A stretch of 64,000 bases of DNA. Origin: Escherichia coli. Lineage in GTDB: Bacteria; Pseudomonadota; Gammaproteobacteria; Enterobacterales; Enterobacteriaceae. The stretch lies in assembly GCF_003334405.1 (NCBI RefSeq), contig NZ_QOWM01000004.1; one strand, 5' to 3'. Under the pieces are notes generated by a model, which was not told where the DNA came from, did not search any database, and saw only the letters and a list, made by a program, of their open reading frames with translations. A program made the translations under genes and the position numbers. Shown here in pieces: positions 12,828 to 51,928 of this stretch (positions are counted from its first letter, which is position 1; every line of letters starts with the position of its first letter).

Positions 12828-14099
12828 ATGCAGTATAAAGATGAAAACGGCGTGAATGAACCGTCACGCCGACGTTTACTGAAAGTGATAGGTGCACTGG
12901 CGCTGGCGGGAAGTTGTCCGGTCGCTCATGCACAAAAAACGCAAAGTGCGCCGGGTACGCTTTCACCGGATGCTCGCAATGAGAAACAGCCGTTTTATGG
13001 TGAGCATCAGGCAGGGATCCTGACGCCACAACAGGCCGCAATGATGCTGGTGGCGTTTGATGTGCTTGCCAGCGATAAAGCCGATCTTGAGCGGTTGTTT
13101 CGCTTGTTGACTCAGCGTTTTGCTTTTCTGACTCAGGGCGGAGCAGCACCAGAAACGCCAAATCCGCGCCTGCCACCACTCGATTCCGGCATTCTTGGCG
13201 GCTACATTGCGCCCGATAATCTCACCATCACGTTATCGGTGGGTCACTCATTGTTTGATGAGCGCTTTGGCCTTGCGCCACAGATGCCAAAAAAGCTGCA
13301 GAAGATGACGCGTTTCCCCAACGACTCGCTGGATGCGGCGTTATGTCATGGTGATGTGTTGCTACAGATTTGCGCCAACACCCAGGACACGGTTATCCAT
13401 GCGCTGCGCGATATCATCAAACACACGCCGGATTTGCTCAGTGTGCGCTGGAAGCGGGAAGGGTTTATTTCCGATCACGCGGCGCGTAGTAAAGGCAAAG
13501 AGACGCCGATTAATTTGCTGGGTTTCAAAGACGGCACTGCCAATCCCGATAGCCAGAATGATAAGTTGATGCAAAAAGTGGTGTGGGTAACGGCAGATCA
13601 GCAGGAGCCTGCGTGGACAATCGGTGGCAGCTATCAGGCAGTACGCTTGATTCAGTTTCGAGTGGAATTTTGGGACAGAACGCCGCTGAAAGAACAGCAG
13701 ACGATTTTTGGCCGTGATAAGCAAACCGGTGCGCCGCTGGGAATGCAGCATGAGCATGATGTGCCTGATTACGCCAGCGACCCGGAAGGGAAGGTGATCG
13801 CGCTGGACAGCCATATCCGGCTGGCGAATCCCCGCACGGCGGAGAGTGAGTCCAGCCTGATGCTGCGTCGTGGCTACAGTTATTCACTGGGCGTCACCAA
13901 CTCCGGGCAACTGGATATGGGGTTGCTGTTTGTCTGCTACCAACACGATCTGGAAAAAGGCTTCCTGACAGTACAAAAAAGGCTCAATGGCGAAGCGCTG
14001 GAGGAATACGTTAAACCTATCGGCGGCGGTTATTTTTTTGCGCTGCCGGGGGTGAAGGACGCGAACGATTATTTCGGAAGCGCGTTATTGCGGGTTTAA
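12828..14099 (+). CDS. efeB: EfeB, Tat-exported dye-decolorizing (DyP) haem peroxidase / deferrochelatase
   Basis: ORF track 423 aa; twin-arginine motif SRRRLLK in N-terminus. Confidence 0.95.
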
Positions 14100-14443: not shown

Positions 14444-15508
14444 ATGGTAACGTCCTGTACTGGACATGTTTTAGATAATCAACGCGCCACCACTCGCGGA
14501 GTTTTCTCCTCCGGTAGTCATCTCGTCACTTTGCATTTTCAACCTCATCCTTTCTTTTCATGTGTTACCGACGCCGTAAACGGTGCGCGTAGCCGTTTTT
14601 CGGCATTTTATCCAAAAGCAAACTATGGCTTACAAGGAAGCCAACCCTCTGATGTTCGTGCGCATAATCGCGCTGCCAACGGCGCGTGTGATGAATACAA
14701 ACAACTCAAGGTGCTCTCCATGGGAAGACAAAAAGCAGTGATCAAAGCTCGTCGCGAGGCAAAACGTGTGCTGAGACGGGATTCGCGCAGCCATAAGCAG
14801 CGTGAAGAAGAATCGGTCACCTCGCTTGTGCAGATGGGCGGCGTAGAAGCCATTGGTATGGCCCGCGACAGTCGCGATACTTCGCCCATCCTCGCGCGAA
14901 ATGAAGCGCAATTGCACTATCTGAAGGCTATTGAGAGTAAGCAGCTGATATTCGCCACGGGCGAAGCCGGGTGCGGAAAAACCTGGATCAGCGCAGCAAA
15001 AGCGGCAGAGGCCCTGATACATAAGGATGTCGACAGGATTATCGTCACCCGTCCAGTTCTGCAAGCCGATGAAGATCTTGGCTTCTTACCTGGAGATATC
15101 GCAGAAAAGTTTGCTCCCTATTTTCGCCCGGTCTACGACGTGCTGGTCCGGCGCTTAGGGGCTTCCTTTATGCAGTACTGCCTGCGACCGGAAATAGGGA
15201 AGGTGGAAATTGCGCCGTTCGCCTATATGCGTGGACGTACCTTTGAAAATGCAGTCGTCATTCTTGACGAGGCGCAGAATGTGACTGCCGCGCAAATGAA
15301 AATGTTTTTAACCCGCCTCGGGGAGAACGTGACGGTTATCGTCAACGGTGATATCACGCAATGCGATTTGCCTCGCGGCGTGTGCTCCGGATTAAGTGAC
15401 GCGCTGGAACGTTTCGAAGAAGATGAAATGGTTGGGATCGTCCGGTTCGGTAAAGAGGACTGCGTACGTTCGGCACTTTGCCAACGTACGCTGCATGCCT
15501 ACAGTTAA
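14444..15508 (+). CDS. phoH: PhoH, phosphate-starvation-inducible ATPase (PhoH-like)
   Basis: ORF track 354 aa with Walker A GEAGCGKT. Confidence 0.93.
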   Translation: MVTSCTGHVLDNQRATTRGVFSSGSHLVTLHFQPHPFFSCVTDAVNGARSRFSAFYPKANYGLQGSQPSDVRAHNRAANGACDEYKQLKVLSMGRQKAVIKARREAKRVLRRDSRSHKQREEESVTSLVQMGGVEAIGMARDSRDTSPILARNEAQLHYLKAIESKQLIFATGEAGCGKTWISAAKAAEALIHKDVDRIIVTRPVLQADEDLGFLPGDIAEKFAPYFRPVYDVLVRRLGASFMQYCLRPEIGKVEIAPFAYMRGRTFENAVVILDEAQNVTAAQMKMFLTRLGENVTVIVNGDITQCDLPRGVCSGLSDALERFEEDEMVGIVRFGKEDCVRSALCQRTLHAYS

Positions 15509-23726: not shown

Positions 23727-24593
23727 CTAAGCGAGGTTCTTGTTTTCAAATTGTTCCGGACTGAGGCCGCCACACCAACTGTGCCGCCGCCACCGATTGT
23801 AATCACATTCGATATAATTAAACACCGTTGCCCGCATTATTTCCCGGCTGATAAAGTGTTCTCCATGGATACATTCCACTTTCAGCGAATGAAAGAAGCT
23901 TTCCACGCAGGCATTATCGTAGCAGCAACCTTTTGCGCTCATACTTCCACGCAGATTATGCCGCTTCAGTTGCGCCTGATAATCTGCTGAACAGTACTGG
24001 CCTCCACGGTCCGTGTGAACGATAACGTTCCGGGGCCTCTTACGCCGCCACAGCGCCATCTGCAGGGCATCGCAGGCCAGTTGCGCCGTCATGCGTGGCG
24101 ACATTGACCAGCCAATAACGGCACGTGACCACAGGTCAATGACCACTGCCAGATACAGCCAGCCTTCATCTGTACGTAAGTACGTGATGTCTCCTGCCCA
24201 CTTCTGGTTCGGGCCACTGGCGTAAAAATCCTGCTCCAACAGATTTTCTGACACAGGCAGGCCGTGTGCGCGGTAGCTGACCGGGCTGAACTTCCGGGAG
24301 GCCTTTGCCCTCAGTCCCTGACGGCGCAGGCTTGCCGCCACGGTTTTTACGTTAAAGGGGTAACCCTGAGCACGCAGTTCATCCGTCAGGCGTGGGGCAC
24401 CGTAACGCTGTTTTGACCGGGTAAAAGCCGCGAGGACAACGCTGTCGCAGTGTTGGCGGAACTGCTGACGCGTGCTTATCCTTGTCCGCCGCTGACACCA
24501 CGTATACCAGCCGCTGCGGGCCACCCGGAGCACGCGGCACATTGCTTTGATGCTGAACTCAGCCTGATGTTTTTCAATAAAGACATACTTCAT
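23727..24593 (-). CDS. insF: IS3 OrfB (InsF) transposase, DDE catalytic domain
   Basis: ORF track 288 aa [32 protein letters not shown]; overlaps orfA (ATGA). Confidence 0.95.
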
Positions 24594-24889
24594 TTCAGGC
24601 GCTTCGCGAAGTATGTCGCGGCCTTTTGGAGGATAGCCAGCTCTTCATCCCGTTCTGCCAGCTGGCGTTTGAGACGTGCAATCTCGGTAGACATCTCCAG
24701 TTCACGTTCAGAAGACGTCTGCTGATTTTGCTGTTTACTGCGCCAGTTGTAGAGTTGTGATTCATACAGGCTGAGTTCACGGGCTGCGGCAGTAACACCG
24801 ATGCGTTCAGCAAGCTTCAGGGCTTCACTGCGAAATTCAGGCGAATGCTGTTTACGGGGTTTTTTACTGGTTGATACTGTTTTTGTCAT
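24590..24889 (-). CDS. insE: IS3 OrfA (InsE), HTH DNA-binding transposase subunit
   Basis: ORF track 24590..24898 (GTG-extended); ATG gives [31 protein letters not shown] (99 aa). Confidence 0.93.
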
Positions 24890-24954
24890 GTGAGTCACCT
24901 CTGACTGAGAGTTTACTCACTTAGCCGCGTGTCCACTATTGCTGGGTAAGATCA

Positions 24955-25298
24955 GTGCCTGGCACACGCGTTTGATGGAAGACGGCGTTCAGGCAATGCG
25001 CGATTATCTTGCCGGACTGGATATCGCTTCGCCAGAGCATCAGGTTCTGATGAACGTAACAGCAAAAAGCGAGGTCGCTCCGTCAATTATCAAAGAAAAT
25101 CTCTCATTACACTTAACTCATACGGTGAAATGGACTGAATCTCTCGATACATTTCTGAATATGCCAACCCCGGTAGCTTTCCTTGAAATAAGTAATAAGC
25201 CCTATTTGGGGAATATGTTAAATGATTTTGCTGGCGTGGATCAGCAACGAGTTATGCATTGTCGTAAAGCATTTAGTGATGCAAAGGTATTCAAATGA
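24955..25298 (+). pseudogene. ymdE: Truncated C-terminal fragment of an acyltransferase (malonyl-CoA:ACP transacylase-like) gene abutting IS3
   Basis: ORF track 24939..25298 begins inside the IS3 inverted repeat; no plausible N-terminal domain; translation resembles the C-terminal lobe of FabD-like acyltransferases. Confidence 0.6.
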
Positions 25299-26281
25299 TT
25301 CCTGATTATTTAACTTTTATTCGCTTTCAGGATAAACGAAATCTGATATACATTTATGCTATTGGACTTATTCTGATAGGCTTTTATTGGAAGAATGCAG
25401 GGTTTACTTTTCCATCAGAGGATATTGGTGTAGTTAGTGGGATTCTGGCTCTGGTGCTGTATAATTTTATTTTTGATCTCAAGGCGTACTGGGCTTATAA
25501 ATGCGTCACGAAGAATATCGATTTTTCGTGGTTTAAGAAAAAGCAGAACCACAAAATAGAATTATTTCTTACACAACCTCTGGTGGCAGGATTTCTGTCG
25601 TTAATCATGTTGAGTGCAATGAGTTGGGGGCTATACCAGCTTCTACCCTCGTTATATGCGCTGTTCCTGATTTCGTTACTTGGGCCGTTGGTCATCTTTC
25701 TGCTGTTTCGGATGATCCGCACCAGTTATGTCAAGCAGGTCGCTATTTCAGTAGCGAAAAAAGTAAAATATAAAAGTCTGACTCGCTATGTGCTGCTTTC
25801 GGTGTGCATCTCAACGGTTGTTAACCTGCTTACTATCAGCCCGTTGCGTAACAGTGATTCTTTTGTGACAGAGGGGCAGTGGTTAACGTTTAAATCGATA
25901 ATTGCATTGCTCATTCTTTGTGGCGTAGTGTTGGCGATTAATCTGTTTTTTCTGCGCTTCTCCAAGCGGTACGCTTTTCTGGGCAGGCTTTTTTTGCAGG
26001 AAATCGATCTGTTTTTCTCCAGTGAAAATGCGTTGTCGACCTTTTTTGCCAAGCCGCTTTGGCTTCGGTTATTCATATTGCTGGTTATTGAAGTGATGTG
26101 GATTACGCTGGTGTCGGTATTGGCAACGCTTGTAGAATGGCGGATTTGGTTTGAAGCCTATTTTTTACTCTGCTATGTACCGTGCTTAATTTACTATTTT
26201 TTCTATTGTCGATTCCTCTGGCATAACGATTTTATGATGGCATGTGACATGTATTTCCGTTGGGGGCATTTTAATAAGTGA
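25295..26281 (+). CDS. ycdU: YcdU, predicted polytopic inner-membrane protein of unknown function
   Basis: ORF track 328 aa [32 protein letters not shown]; many hydrophobic segments; AT-rich. Confidence 0.9.
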
Positions 26282-26413
26282 GGAAGTGATAGGAAGTGAC
26301 CAGATAATACATATATGTTCTGTACTCTCTTGCGCATTTTGATTGTTGACTGAGTAACCAGACAGTTGATGTGCACGATTTCCCCTCGCCCTAACAGACG
26401 TGGGCGGGGGCAC

Positions 26414-26835
26414 CCGGTGTGTGCAATATACGAAAAAAAAGCCCGTACTTTCGTACGAGCTCTTCTTTAAATATGGCGGTGAGGGGGGGATTGACTCGCT
26501 TCGCTCGCCCTGCGGGCAGCCCGCTCACTGCGTTCACGGTCTGTCCAACTGGCTGTCGCCAGTTGTCGAACCCCGGTCGGGGCTTCTCATCCCCCCGGTG
26601 TGTGCAATATACGAAAAAAAAGCCCGTACTTTCGTACGAGCTCTTCTTTAAATATGGCGGTGAGGGGGGGATTGACTCGCTTCGCTCGCCCTGCGGGCAG
26701 CCCGCTCACTGCGTTCACGGTCTGTCCAACTGGCTGTCGCCAGTTGTCGAACCCCGGTCGGGGCTTCTCATCCCCCCGGTGTGTGCAATATACGAAAAAA
26801 AAGCCCGTACTTTCGTACGAGCTCTTCTTTAAATA
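26414..26835. repeat. Tandem direct repeat, 181-bp unit x ~2.3, each unit carrying a copy of the serX 3' end and its terminator
   Basis: Identical ORF-track fragments begin at 26419, 26600 and 26781 (period 181); sequence ccggtgtgtgcaatatacgaaaaaaaagcccgtactttcgtacgagctcttctttaaatatggcggtgaggggggatt... repeats exactly. Confidence 0.92.
26781..26835 (-). terminator. serX rho-independent terminator (copies recur in each repeat unit)
   Basis: Reverse strand immediately after tRNA CCA: GAGCTCGTACGAAAGTACGGGC hairpin followed by TTTTTTTT. Confidence 0.75.
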
Positions 26836-26923
26836 TGGCGGTGAGGGGGGGATTCGAACCCCCGATACGTTGCCGTATACACACTTTCCAGGCGTGCTCC
26901 TTCAGCCACTCGGACACCTCACC
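26836..26923 (-). tRNA. serX: tRNA-Ser (GGA anticodon), 88 nt with long variable arm and encoded CCA
   Basis: Reverse strand reads GGTGAGGTGTCCGAGTGGCTGAAGGAGCACGCCTGGAAAGTGTGTATACGGCAACGTATCGGGGGTTCGAATCCCCCCCTCACCGCCA. Confidence 0.95.
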
Positions 26924-27117
26924 AAATTGTCGTTCCTGTCTTGCTGGAACGGGCGCTAATTTAGGGAAATCATGACCTGAGGTCAACAAACTTTTTGAAA
27001 AAATCGCGCGTTTATTCAAACTTCAATCAATGTGTGGTTTTAATAAGCGAAATCTGCTTTTTTTGCCACCGACCACGGATTTGTTATGCTGGTGGCCTTT
27101 GTAGATCATAATGATAA

Positions 27118-28095
<978 letters not shown>

Positions 28096-32467: not shown

Positions 32468-33221
32468 GATGAAACCCCGCTTTTTTTATTGATCGCACAC
32501 CTGACAGCTGCCTCTAAAATAGAAGCACCAGAAGTACTGACAGATGTTGCACTGCTGTGTGTAGTAATAAATCAGCCCTAAATGGGTAAAATATAAAACT
32601 AATGGATTACATCTGATTTCAATCTAGCCATTACAAATCTTAAATCAAGTGTTAAACATGTAACTAAATGTAACTCGTTATATTAAAATGTTAACCTTAA
32701 GGTTTTGTTAAGTTTAGAAATGATAGAAAAGTTGTACATTTGGTTTTTATTGCACAATTTTAAAAAATCATACAAATGGTGATAACTTACTAATAATGCA
32801 TATAAAAAATATTTCGGTGTAGTCCTTTCGTCATGTAAAACGTTCTTGTTTTTTCTCCACACCTCCGTGGACAATTTTTTACTGCAAAAAGACGAGGTTT
32901 GTCACGGCTTGTGCGCAAGACATATCGCAGCAATCAGCGACGGGCAAGAAGAATGACTGTCTGGTGCTTTTTGATAGCGGAAAGCGGAGATTTAAAAGAA
33001 AACAAAATATTTTTTTGCGTAGATAACAGCGTATTTACGTGGGTTTTAATACTTTGGTATGAACTAAAAAAGAAAAATACAACGCGCGGGTGAGTTATTA
33101 AAAATATTTCCGCAGACATACTTTCCATCGTAACGCAGCGTTAACAAAATACAGGTTGCGTTAACAACCAAGTTGAAATGATTTAATTTCTTAAATGTAC
33201 GACCAGGTCCAGGGTGACAAC
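32468..33221. promoter_or_regulatory. csgD-csgB divergent intergenic regulatory region (csgDEFG and csgBAC promoters)
   Basis: 754-bp AT-rich non-coding region between divergently transcribed csgD and csgB; only short spurious ORFs. Confidence 0.8.
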
Positions 33222-42685: not shown

Positions 42686-42786
42686 TTGCCTGATGCGCTA
42701 CGCTTATCAGGCCTACATCGTTCCTGCAATTTATTGATTTTGCAAGACTTTGTGGGTCGGATAAGGCGTTCACGCCGCATCCGGCA
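42686..42786. repeat. REP elements (two units) downstream of opgH
   Basis: gcctgatgcgctacgcttatcaggcctaca and ggtcggataaggcgttcacgccgcatccggcaa. Confidence 0.75.
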
Positions 42787-51879: not shown

Positions 51880-51928
51880 TAATCTCTATGCTCCGGCTGA
51901 AGGGATGTTTTTGCCGGACACAAAGGAT

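Follow-up and report, generated by a model that had tools for sequence, protein, structure and literature searches.

The repeated DNA adjoining serX is very probably a tandem array of two RtT elements located in the 3' trailer of this tRNA gene, a reading that best explains the region as a whole. RtT (Rfam RF00391) designates a structured RNA element that immediately follows certain tRNA genes of Enterobacteriaceae, with tyrT/tyrV as the classic case. The serX repeats are thus an already catalogued structured RNA element, first found beside tyrT, and are known and of low novelty; in the literature searched, no mention of the serX repeats was found.

Tandem Repeats Finder was applied to the whole window (the complete 64-kb stretch of DNA that was analysed) and reported one tandem array at 26413-26854 (period: 181 bp; 2.4 copies; 100% matches; 0% indels; score: 884; assigned to neither strand) and no other sizeable tandem repeat. 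The perfect 181-bp repeat that the initial annotation had described beside serX was confirmed, with a constant period and 100% identity. Perfect periodic identity over 442 bp cannot have arisen by chance, and the identical array was found in thousands of independent complete genomes, indicating that it is not an assembly artefact. A repeat search placed two copies with 100% identity at 26413-26593 and 26594-26774 and a third at 26775-26955, which reached only 61% because it runs into the tRNA. This tRNA-Ser(GGA) was identified by ARAGORN and Rfam (53.8 bits) at 26836-26923 on the minus strand and is identical to serX (b1032) of MG1655. On the plus strand, the 19-mer TGGCGGTGAGGGGGGGATT is present at positions 26474, 26655 and 26836, and the occurrence at 26836 is the genuine 3' end of serX (26836-26854, minus strand), which is re-copied in each repeat. 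Both the merging of the third copy into the real tRNA and the sharing of this 19-mer between the units and serX had been claimed initially and were correct; the string quoted at that time was itself one G short, a trivial error.

Read on the tRNA strand, each unit comprises a 61-nt intrinsic-terminator module, a GC-rich and hairpin-rich body of ~101 nt and the 19-nt serX 3' end with its CCA, and the unit sequence matches the anatomy first proposed (terminator, tRNA 3' end and a GC-rich segment of ~100 nt). The array has the layout tRNA-A-(B-A)n with n=2, in which an extra terminator module closes the array before unique DNA. All of its parts lie on the minus strand. Module A1 (26775-26835), recognized from sequence and RNA folding, is the terminator of serX itself, with a hairpin core at 26806-26819 in the terminator scan; it consists of an 8-bp GC-rich stem, a GAAA loop, U8 and a 20-nt spacer with a CCGGG end. 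The proximal RtT element follows at 26655-26791 and ends with the 19 nt copied from the tRNA 3' end, CCA among them, at 26655-26673. Module A2 (26594-26654; hairpin core: 26625-26638) is identical in sequence to A1, and the distal RtT element (26474-26610; tRNA 3'-end copy: 26474-26492) is identical to the proximal one. The partial last repeat is module A3 (26413-26473; hairpin core: 26444-26457), where the array stops within the G-run that would open the next RtT body. Read on the plus strand, the A3 hairpin faces the convergent gene ycdU. A third, degenerate unit to the left of 26413 was considered, since the motif GGGCGAG is present in the unique DNA there, but it was rejected because no Rfam match appeared at E values up to 10. 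The flanking genes, both on the plus strand, are ycdU (25295-26281; ORF list and RefSeq annotation of matching records), which converges with serX, and ghrA (27157-28095), which diverges from it; the ORF list gives the latter as 27118-28095 from the first GTG, and the RefSeq ghrA measures 939 nt.

Both serX units matched the Rfam RtT model over its full length (1-130/130) at 46.3 bits, slightly over the gathering score of 45; the E value was 4.6e-7 for a search of 3.5 kb and 8.4e-6 for the whole window. Serine-associated units in general scored 45-58 bits, compared with 100-137 bits for tyrT-type units, and membership of the serX type is borderline by Rfam score alone. A second covariance model, R1, was built from 15 serX-type units of different genera with all tyrT-type units excluded. 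R1 gave 162.8 bits for each of the two units in the window, recovered rttR of MG1655 (L002, 1567-1699; 44 bits, E: 9e-10) and also matched every other tyrT-type unit (E: 1e-15 to 2e-6). Judged by these reciprocal matches, homology and not mere similarity links the bodies of the serX units to the rtT repeats of tyrT. Moreover, in many E. coli genomes the serX locus is given the label 'RtT sRNA' by RefSeq/PGAP. The likeness to the tyrT repeats noted at the outset was thus strengthened to homology. In the MG1655 reference record, the repeat region at serX carries no annotation, and serX-type units with ~1% divergence were without RefSeq annotation; this automatic labelling is erratic because serX-type units sit at the Rfam threshold.

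Position and distribution agree with this assignment. The first RtT body begins 64 nt past the serX CCA on the same strand, and across loci from ~25 enterobacterial species, RtT units begin 60-69 nt past the CCA of tRNA-Ser(GGA) or tRNA-Tyr(GTA). The unit end AATCCCCCCCTCACCGCCA at 26474-26492 and 26655-26673 exactly matches serX at 26836-26854, whereas tyrT units end with AATCCTTCCCCCACCACCA. In addition, the RtT body was found behind tRNA-Ser(GGA) in Citrobacter, Enterobacter, Kosakonia, Pluralibacter, Phytobacter, Pseudocitrobacter, Superficieibacter and E. albertii. Beyond these hosts, Pasteurellaceae are reported to carry RtT copies beside tRNA-Asn and tRNA-Lys.

RNA folding of the serX unit gave a z-score of -5.1, and the body folds into 3-4 hairpins and a closing stem, in which the 5' G-rich segment pairs with the tRNA-derived 3' segment. 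Of 64 distinct units, 61 had this closing stem in their minimum-energy fold. MAFFT misaligned the hairpins of serX-type and tyrT-type units, and anchored segments and a covariance-model alignment were used instead. In the resulting alignment of 67 distinct sequences, which was fitted to the model structure so that the pairing counts are inflated, 91.8% of cells were paired, compared with 74.1% in shuffles (none of 500 shuffles reached 91.8%) and 34-59% in slid controls, and 24 of 34 pairs had changed on both sides. Nine compensatory pairs occurred within the serX-type units alone, and covariation support for RtT has also been obtained with CaCoFold (PMC7657543). The maintenance of hairpins by compensatory changes across genera indicates that selection has acted on a folded single strand. 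A hammerhead-like core was also considered, as GGAUGAG-stem-CGAC recalls CUGAUGAG-stem II-CGAAA, but it lacks matches to the invariant C3, U4 and A14, and this candidate was rejected.

The T-stem-like segments of RtT change along with the T-stem of the host tRNA, although only 3 or 4 independent changes were observed. Units behind tRNA-Ser read GGGGGG/CCCC/GGGG/CCCCCC and units behind tRNA-Tyr read GGAAGG/CTTC/AAGG/CCTTCC. In Pseudocitrobacter, a T-stem pair of the tRNA is flipped, and the units read GGCGGGG/GCCCG/CGGGG/CCCCGCC. All four segments (G-rich; C-rich; G-rich with UUCGA; AUCC with C-rich; E1 to E4) track the host T-stem in this manner. They can form two mutually exclusive sets of pairings, E1:E4 with E2:E3 or E1:E2 with E3:E4, and the second form looks like a T-arm with a loop insertion of ~75 nt, followed by a free acceptor 3' strand and CCA. 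On this basis, we speculated that the RtT body is a conformational switch matched to its tRNA, or a mimic of the tRNA 3' half, rather than a passive by-product, although we consider this improbable. E1 complements the 3' strand of the upstream tRNA itself equally well, and a read-through transcript could therefore sense or disturb how its own tRNA folds or matures at the 3' end; the element could instead serve as a decoy that engages enzymes or toxins recognizing the T-arm or the CCA end. If the switch or mimic were real, the terminator before each serX-type copy would make RtT a read-through-gated device.

The terminator modules carry the hairpin GCUCGUAC GAAA GUACGGGC followed by U8, which stretches to 16 bp in the minimum-energy fold. 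Their stems vary by genus yet remain paired (GTAC/GTAC, GCAT/ATGC and GCGT/ATGC), and the hairpin, the U-run and these compensatory stem changes predict Rho-independent terminators. A predicted terminator lies between the CCA and the body in 62 of 66 distinct serX-type trailers, compared with none of 98 tyrT-type trailers. Because a strong terminator is predicted between the tRNA and every RtT body, little transcription may reach the bodies. The terminator-free co-transcription of tRNA and RtT in the tyrT prototype was not found at serX, and this property is possibly not a defining one. A consensus scan of the tRNA strand detected no promoter-like site inside the repeat units, and the only site was a sigma-70-like promoter, TTGACC-17-TAAATT, upstream of serX (26958-26986, minus strand; consensus match only). 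The possibility that each unit has its own promoter was rejected, since the TATATT after the U-run lacks a usable -35 and is unconserved in other genera, in line with the empty scan.

A stable processed rtT RNA at tyrT is attributed to Bosl & Kersten 1991 in the citing passages of PMC3318445, PMC4986893 and PMC7542023, and rttR is annotated as starting 7 nt past the 3' end of tyrV and stopping at the CCA of the first repeat. The sole role proposed for RtT RNA in the literature searched is modulation of the amino-acid starvation response. It is plausible, as the initial annotation had proposed, that the serX units are also a source of a processed small RNA, which is complicated by the terminator ahead of every unit. 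With no promoter of their own, they would be transcribed only upon read-through of the serX terminator by RNA polymerase, and the read-through RNA would then be cut and trimmed to CCA ends by the tRNA 3'-maturation machinery, as at tyrT. The papers and supplements searched yielded no expression data for the serX units; in the supplements of one 3'-end-mapping paper and one pseudouridine-mapping paper, serX, ycdU and rttR were absent.

The copy number of the units was derived from a flank-only query, in which n units give a span of 1080+181n between the same flanks. In a spread sample of E. coli genomes, n was 0, 1, 2, 3 or 4 (range: 0 to at least 4), with 3 units in MG1655 (NC_000913.3) and 4 units in K-12 NBRC 3301. 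The zero-copy allele of strain 300709 equals the window sequence minus exactly 2 x 181 bp, so that the copy-number-variable locus suggested initially was established. Such alleles occur in near-identical strains and, as their backgrounds are otherwise identical, show that the array is dispensable. The RtT body was present in 3366 of 5426 complete E. coli genomes (~62%), with bodies in 1-11 places per carrier genome (median: 2) when all loci were counted. The variable number of units here can account for their perfect identity. The number would shift when the 181-bp units undergo unequal homologous recombination or replication slippage, with the 80-bp 'tRNA end + terminator' repeats as an alternative exchange substrate, and the same process would keep the copies identical by concerted evolution. 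The array is a ready copy-number marker that differs even between K-12 stocks, and it is also a trap for short-read assembly.

Alternatively, the units could be neutral or selfish duplications of the serX terminator region that have no RNA function, persist only through tandem expansion and contraction and at most add back-up bidirectional terminators between the convergent ycdU and serX. The perfectly identical copies, their number from 0 to at least 4 with zero-copy alleles and the low body transcription expected behind a predicted terminator are consistent with this explanation. A truncated remnant is also tolerated, as strain FAH retains only the first ~45 nt of the body, fused to the dgcT end. 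However, many genera have retained the body behind tRNA-Ser(GGA), its hairpins preserved by compensatory changes, its closing-stem segment tracks the flipped T-stem pair of Pseudocitrobacter, and the tyrT homolog gives a stable RNA according to the rttR annotation and the citing passages mentioned above. Neutral duplication was consequently regarded as unlikely.

An origin of the repeats as scars of a tRNA-targeting integrase, with the 19-mers left as att repeats by insertion of an island and its excision or internal deletion and then amplified, was largely refuted and is very unlikely. OI-48, OI-43 and the SRL island are flanked by a 14-bp direct repeat, TGGCGGTGAGGGGG, which is the last 14 bp of serX/serW (PMC3064760), and this att core lies inside each 19-mer, three times in the window (26474, 26655 and 26836). 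Furthermore, a tyrosine recombinase gene follows the 14-mer beside one RtT unit in NCTC86, an island directly abuts serX in UTI89, and the serX flanks are apart from each other in ~60% of E. coli genomes. Nevertheless, the copies are separated only by 162 bp of terminator and RtT body, with no real ORF and no integrase or island DNA, and the identity to the tRNA extends over 19 nt rather than 14. The intervening body is homologous to the element behind tRNA-Tyr, whose 3' end differs, and in many genera it is conserved after tRNA-Ser(GGA), with compensatory changes; in NCTC86, the island-side sequence by the 14-mer (ACCGCCTGAAATAAATC...) is unrelated to it. Moreover, the 5' segment of the body complements and co-varies with the tRNA-derived 3' segment, which is not expected of integration scars. 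The integration-site remnant considered in the initial annotation therefore fails as an origin, given the missing island DNA and the same body at tRNA-Tyr, while the 14-bp att core within each 19-mer stands, and the array multiplies the att core used by serX-targeting pathogenicity and resistance islands.

Coding of small proteins by the units is extremely improbable and was rejected, whether through plus-strand GTG ORFs (137, 119 and 64 aa) or through a Tpr-like peptide from GGAUGAGAA on the tRNA strand. The GTG-start ORFs at 26419, 26600 and 26781 do exist mechanically and open with the same residues as first listed, tyrT has a 29-aa 'protamine-like protein' (tpr) annotated within rttR that starts at the same conserved ATG, and the serX unit has an 18-codon ORF at the corresponding place (MRSPDRGSTTGDSQLDRP). 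However, the 181-bp period is no multiple of 3, so the frame changes with each unit, and the plus-strand ORFs cross the terminator and the tRNA in antisense orientation. Nothing is annotated at this place in the MG1655 reference record. In a set of 64 distinct units, the ORF that opens at the conserved ATG/GTG can be as short as 5 codons or longer than 37, and substitutions track base-pairing rather than codons. The three spurious ORFs are accounted for by the array.

The tandem RtT array thus remains the preferred reading. RtT has been an orphan RNA since 1991, and the serX subfamily constrains any functional model by its re-tuning to the host T-stem, its copy of the tRNA 3' end, the terminator in front at serX and its dispensability in many strains.

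The closest known system is the rtT/rttR array of tyrT-tyrV. Like the serX array, it consists of tandem units of ~180 bp directly behind a tRNA gene on the same strand, each ending in the last 19 nt of its own tRNA with CCA. The units of both loci share the core GGAUGAGAA, CGAC, GGUUCGA, CCCGNAGGGCGAG and CGAGU-AUCC and have a common multi-hairpin fold, whose closing stem involves the tRNA-derived 3' segment. They differ in the host tRNA (tRNA-Ser(GGA) at serX and tRNA-Tyr at tyrT), in the period (181 bp and 178 bp, respectively) and in the sequence and length of the internal hairpins, and the T-stem-like segments of the serX units are re-tuned to the serine tRNA. An intrinsic terminator precedes each serX-type unit, whereas tyrT-type spacers have none. 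In addition, an RNA product has been reported for tyrT rtT, whereas that of the serX units is putative.

The P4-family islands at serX/serW (OI-48, OI-43 and SRL-PAI) also repeat the tRNA 3' end downstream of the gene. The serX array differs from their att direct repeats in that neither an integrase nor island DNA lies between the copies, the repeat measures 19 nt and is part of a conserved structured element, and the architecture is seen again at tyrT, where the tRNA end is another one. A third group comprises small RNAs from tRNA 3' external transcribed spacers, such as 3'ETS-leuZ. Like the putative RtT RNA, they originate in the trailer of a tRNA transcript, from which tRNA processing enzymes release them; in contrast, RtT has a tRNA 3'-end copy, a large conserved fold and tandem arrays, and nothing here ties it to Hfq or sRNA sponging. 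Finally, the serX array resembles bacterial minisatellites (VNTRs) in its long identical units, whose number differs between close strains, whereas the serX unit is a conserved, functional-looking RNA element with a terminator and not anonymous DNA or a coding repeat.

The tandem array in the serX 3' trailer spans 26413-26854; Tandem Repeats Finder gives it a period of 181 and 2.4 copies, which match at 100% without indels. No other substantial tandem repeat is present in the 64 kb of the window; a small 20-bp repeat at 13097-13136 (2 copies, 85% match) is probably insignificant. The tRNA-Ser(GGA) gene serX was placed at 26836-26923 on the minus strand by ARAGORN and Rfam. Copies of the 19-mer TGGCGGTGAGGGGGGGATT are found at 26474, 26655 and 26836 (this third one being the genuine serX 3' end), and GTG ORFs with identical starts are present at 26419, 26600 and 26781. 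The initial annotation, which had described a perfect 181-bp repeat, three ORFs 181 nt apart and a tRNA 3' end common to the units and serX, was therefore right in all details. Flanking ORFs and RefSeq matches identified the locus as E. coli ycdU - serX - ghrA, with IS3 and ymdE further left. The IS3 copy (insF/insE; 288-aa and 102-aa ORFs, 23727-24898, minus strand) lies left of ymdE-ycdU, as in K-12, so the arrangement of the window is K-12-like. Four other minus-strand RNA elements exceeded the Rfam thresholds: Ysr251 (15310-15503, 189 bits), ES056 (32523-32614), ES036/CssrF (42709-42751) and the PyrC leader (51880-51929). Judging from their positions, Ysr251 probably lies within the pga operon and ES056 probably represents the csgD 5' region.

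On the tRNA strand, serX (88 nt) is followed by two A-B module pairs, a last A and unique DNA. Module A (61 nt) comprises UAUUUAAAGAAGA, the hairpin GCUCGUAC-GAAA-GUACGGGC, U8 and a 20-nt spacer with a CCGGG end, and module B (120 nt) comprises a GC-rich body and then AATCCCCCCCTCACCGCCA, identical to the last 19 nt of serX. Thus, an 80-nt block of tRNA 3' end plus terminator is repeated on each side of a 101-nt body core. The predicted fold of the unit (-79.8 kcal/mol, z-score -5.1) contains the terminator hairpin and a multi-branched domain closed by the 8-bp stem GGGGGGAU / AUCCCCCC, which leaves CUCACCGCCA as an unpaired 3' end. The only promoter-like site found by scanning the tRNA strand was at 26986-26958, upstream of serX, and none was found inside the units.

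Both bodies were matched full-length by the Rfam model of the structured RNA family RtT (RF00391; 46.3 bits, E 4.6e-7; gathering score 45 bits). Because serX-type units score borderline (45-58 bits, versus 100-137 bits for units behind tRNA-Tyr(GTA), the tyrT type), homology was also tested from the serX side. A covariance model, R1, trained on 15 serX-type units from different genera and on no tyrT-type unit, recovered all tyrT-type units, including the prototype rttR at 44 bits (E 9e-10). The likeness to tyrT that the initial annotation had pointed out therefore reflects true homology rather than analogy. Motifs common to both types include GGAUGAGAA, CGAC, GGUUCGA, CCCGNAGGGCGAG and CGAGU-AUCC. 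The serX array is a member of this catalogued family, and the locus is already named in public annotation: RefSeq records carry 'RtT sRNA' at exactly this position, 1-4 times per genome. The curated MG1655 record has no annotation between ycdU and serX. The labelling is also inconsistent, with units that diverge by just about 1% left unannotated in E. coli genomes (matches H5, H52 and H141-H151); this erratic annotation follows from the narrow distance between the serX-type scores and the threshold.

When one genome per species was scanned for the pattern, RtT units turned up in at least about 25 enterobacterial species, and among the matches listed the unit always started 60-69 nt past the CCA of tRNA-Ser(GGA) or tRNA-Tyr(GTA). 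Rfam-based surveys place RtT beside other tRNAs in Pasteurellaceae and Erwinia (PMC4986893, PMC7542023). More distant relatives follow tRNA-Ser(GCT) in Pseudoalteromonas, again with a terminator in front (L107, 7404-7850; L121; L007; R1, E 1e-3 to 3e-6). They stand in tandem, 2 or 3 at a time, and read GGGTGAGAA-CCCTC-GAC-CAGGG-TTCGA. Their 5' segment, GAAGG(A/C)GGG, has its complement in the 3' strand of tRNA-Ser(GCT), and the copy of the tRNA end is either degenerate or missing. In an alignment of 67 distinct sequences, which is fitted to the model, standard pairs filled 91.8% of cells versus 74.1% in shuffles (reached by 0 of 500), and 24 of 34 pairs had changes on both sides (slid controls, 34-59%). 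RNAalifold on a plain MAFFT alignment gave 9 compensatory pairs in serX-type units alone, and covariation has been reported for the family by CaCoFold (PMC7657543). The ORF from the conserved ATG/GTG, which at tyrT is tpr, differs in length among 64 units, the shortest having 5 codons and the longest more than 37, indicating that the folded RNA, not a protein, is conserved.

Four short body segments, E1-E4, vary in step with the host tRNA's T-stem. They read GGGGGG, CCCC, GGGG(UUCGA) and (AAU)CCCCCC behind tRNA-Ser(GGA) (in the window, 26474-26610 and 26655-26791) and GGAAGG, CUUC, AAGG and CCUUCC behind tRNA-Tyr(GTA). In Pseudocitrobacter, a T-stem pair of the tRNA itself is flipped (CCGGGG...CCCCGCC) and all units read GGCGGGG / GCCCG / CGGGG / CCCCGCC, and one Enterobacter unit has GAGGG / CCCUC; the loci noted for this tracking, besides the window, are L099, L102, L017 and L002. 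The tracking rests on 3 or 4 independent changes, and no description of it was found in the literature searched. Anchored counts over 64 distinct units gave 93% pairing for E1:E4 (58-73% when slid) and 86% for E2:E3, as well as 88% for the alternative E1:E2 and 99% for E3:E4; since all four score high, two mutually exclusive schemes (E1:E4 with E2:E3, or E1:E2 with E3:E4) both fit the data. In E. coli SCPM-O-B-8794 (L091, minus strand, about 63-170 nt past serX), a 106-nt unit lacks an insert of about 75 nt, so that E3-UUCGAAUCC-E4 forms a plain intact T-arm and the RtT 5' part joins directly to this T-arm and the tRNA 3' end (...GACCGGGGTTCGAATCCCCCCCTCACCGCCA). It looks either ancestral or like a product of recombination between RtT GGGGTTCGA and the tRNA T-arm. 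This unit suggests that the RtT body is built around a T-arm carrying an insertion in its loop; a weak R1 match on the serX 3' half (26836-26879, 20 bits, E 0.003) fits such a build.

The initial annotation had also named an integration-site remnant as one possibility. P4-family integrase islands at serX/serW (OI-48, OI-43, SRL-PAI) are flanked by a repeat of the tRNA's final 14 bp, TGGCGGTGAGGGGG (PMC3064760), and this core sits within each 19-mer, giving three copies in the window. In E. coli NCTC86 (L126, 3475-5047), an island with a tyrosine recombinase gene first is inserted at this 14-mer and separates serX from one RtT unit, beside which a cryptic tRNA end is left; in UTI89 an island directly abuts serX, and a flank-only query found the two flanks separated in about 60% of genomes. 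As the origin of the repeats, island scars were rejected: a conserved RtT body lies between the 19-mers, the same body stands behind tRNA-Tyr, whose 3' end differs, and in NCTC86 the junction sequence on the island side is unrelated to the body. What stands of the proposal is the att core inside each unit.

The suggestion of a copy-number-variable RtT locus was borne out. With only the two unique flanks as query, spans of 1080+181n (n, units) in a spread sample gave n=0 in 7 rows, 1 in 3, 2 in 8, 3 in 3 and 4 in 2. Strain 300709, with flanks 100% identical to the window, matches it exactly minus the two units. MG1655 (NC_000913.3) has 3 units (L003, 1097022-1097564), the distal one with two SNPs absent from the window's units, and K-12 NBRC 3301 and several other 'K-12 MG1655' assemblies have 4 (compared with L001, H43, H106 and H133); either the number varies between stocks or a unit was collapsed in one assembly. 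A search with the body alone gave 3366 positive genomes out of 5426 complete ones, with 1-11 sites in each (median 2). Perfect identity of the window's two copies is the outcome expected from ongoing expansion and contraction, presumably by unequal recombination or slippage. A parallel is provided by an old laboratory strain that lost RtT along with one of its tyr tRNA genes (PMC12584984). In E. coli FAH (L125, 2498-2602), whose lineage lacks ymdE and ycdU, dgcT ends straight against a cut-off RtT body (first ~45 nt only), followed by the terminator and serX; a deletion endpoint lies inside the element. This remnant and the zero-copy strains show that the array is dispensable.

The finding is real and was well interpreted initially; little of it is new, since RtT is catalogued and the locus is named in RefSeq. 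Worth keeping are the copy-number polymorphism, the tuning of the element to the T-stem of its host tRNA and the apparently terminator-gated layout of the serX subfamily. No published report on expression of the serX bodies was found in the literature and supplements searched, and the sole published suggestion for rtT RNA, as relayed by later papers (PMC3318445, PMC4986893, PMC7542023), is that it modulates the amino-acid starvation response (Bosl & Kersten 1991). The tyrT-tyrV prototype is alike in plan: its units measure 175-178 nt and each closes with the 19 nt that end tRNA-Tyr, and the rttR annotation starts 7 nt past tyrV and stops at the first unit's CCA. The two types differ in the predicted intrinsic terminator before the body: a hairpin and T-run separate the CCA from the RtT body in 62 of 66 distinct serX-type trailers, with stems that vary across genera yet stay paired (loci L008-L111; in the window, 26413-26835), whereas none was found in 98 tyrT-type trailers (including L002, L013 and L100). 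Transcription of the serX bodies should therefore depend on terminator read-through, judging from this layout.
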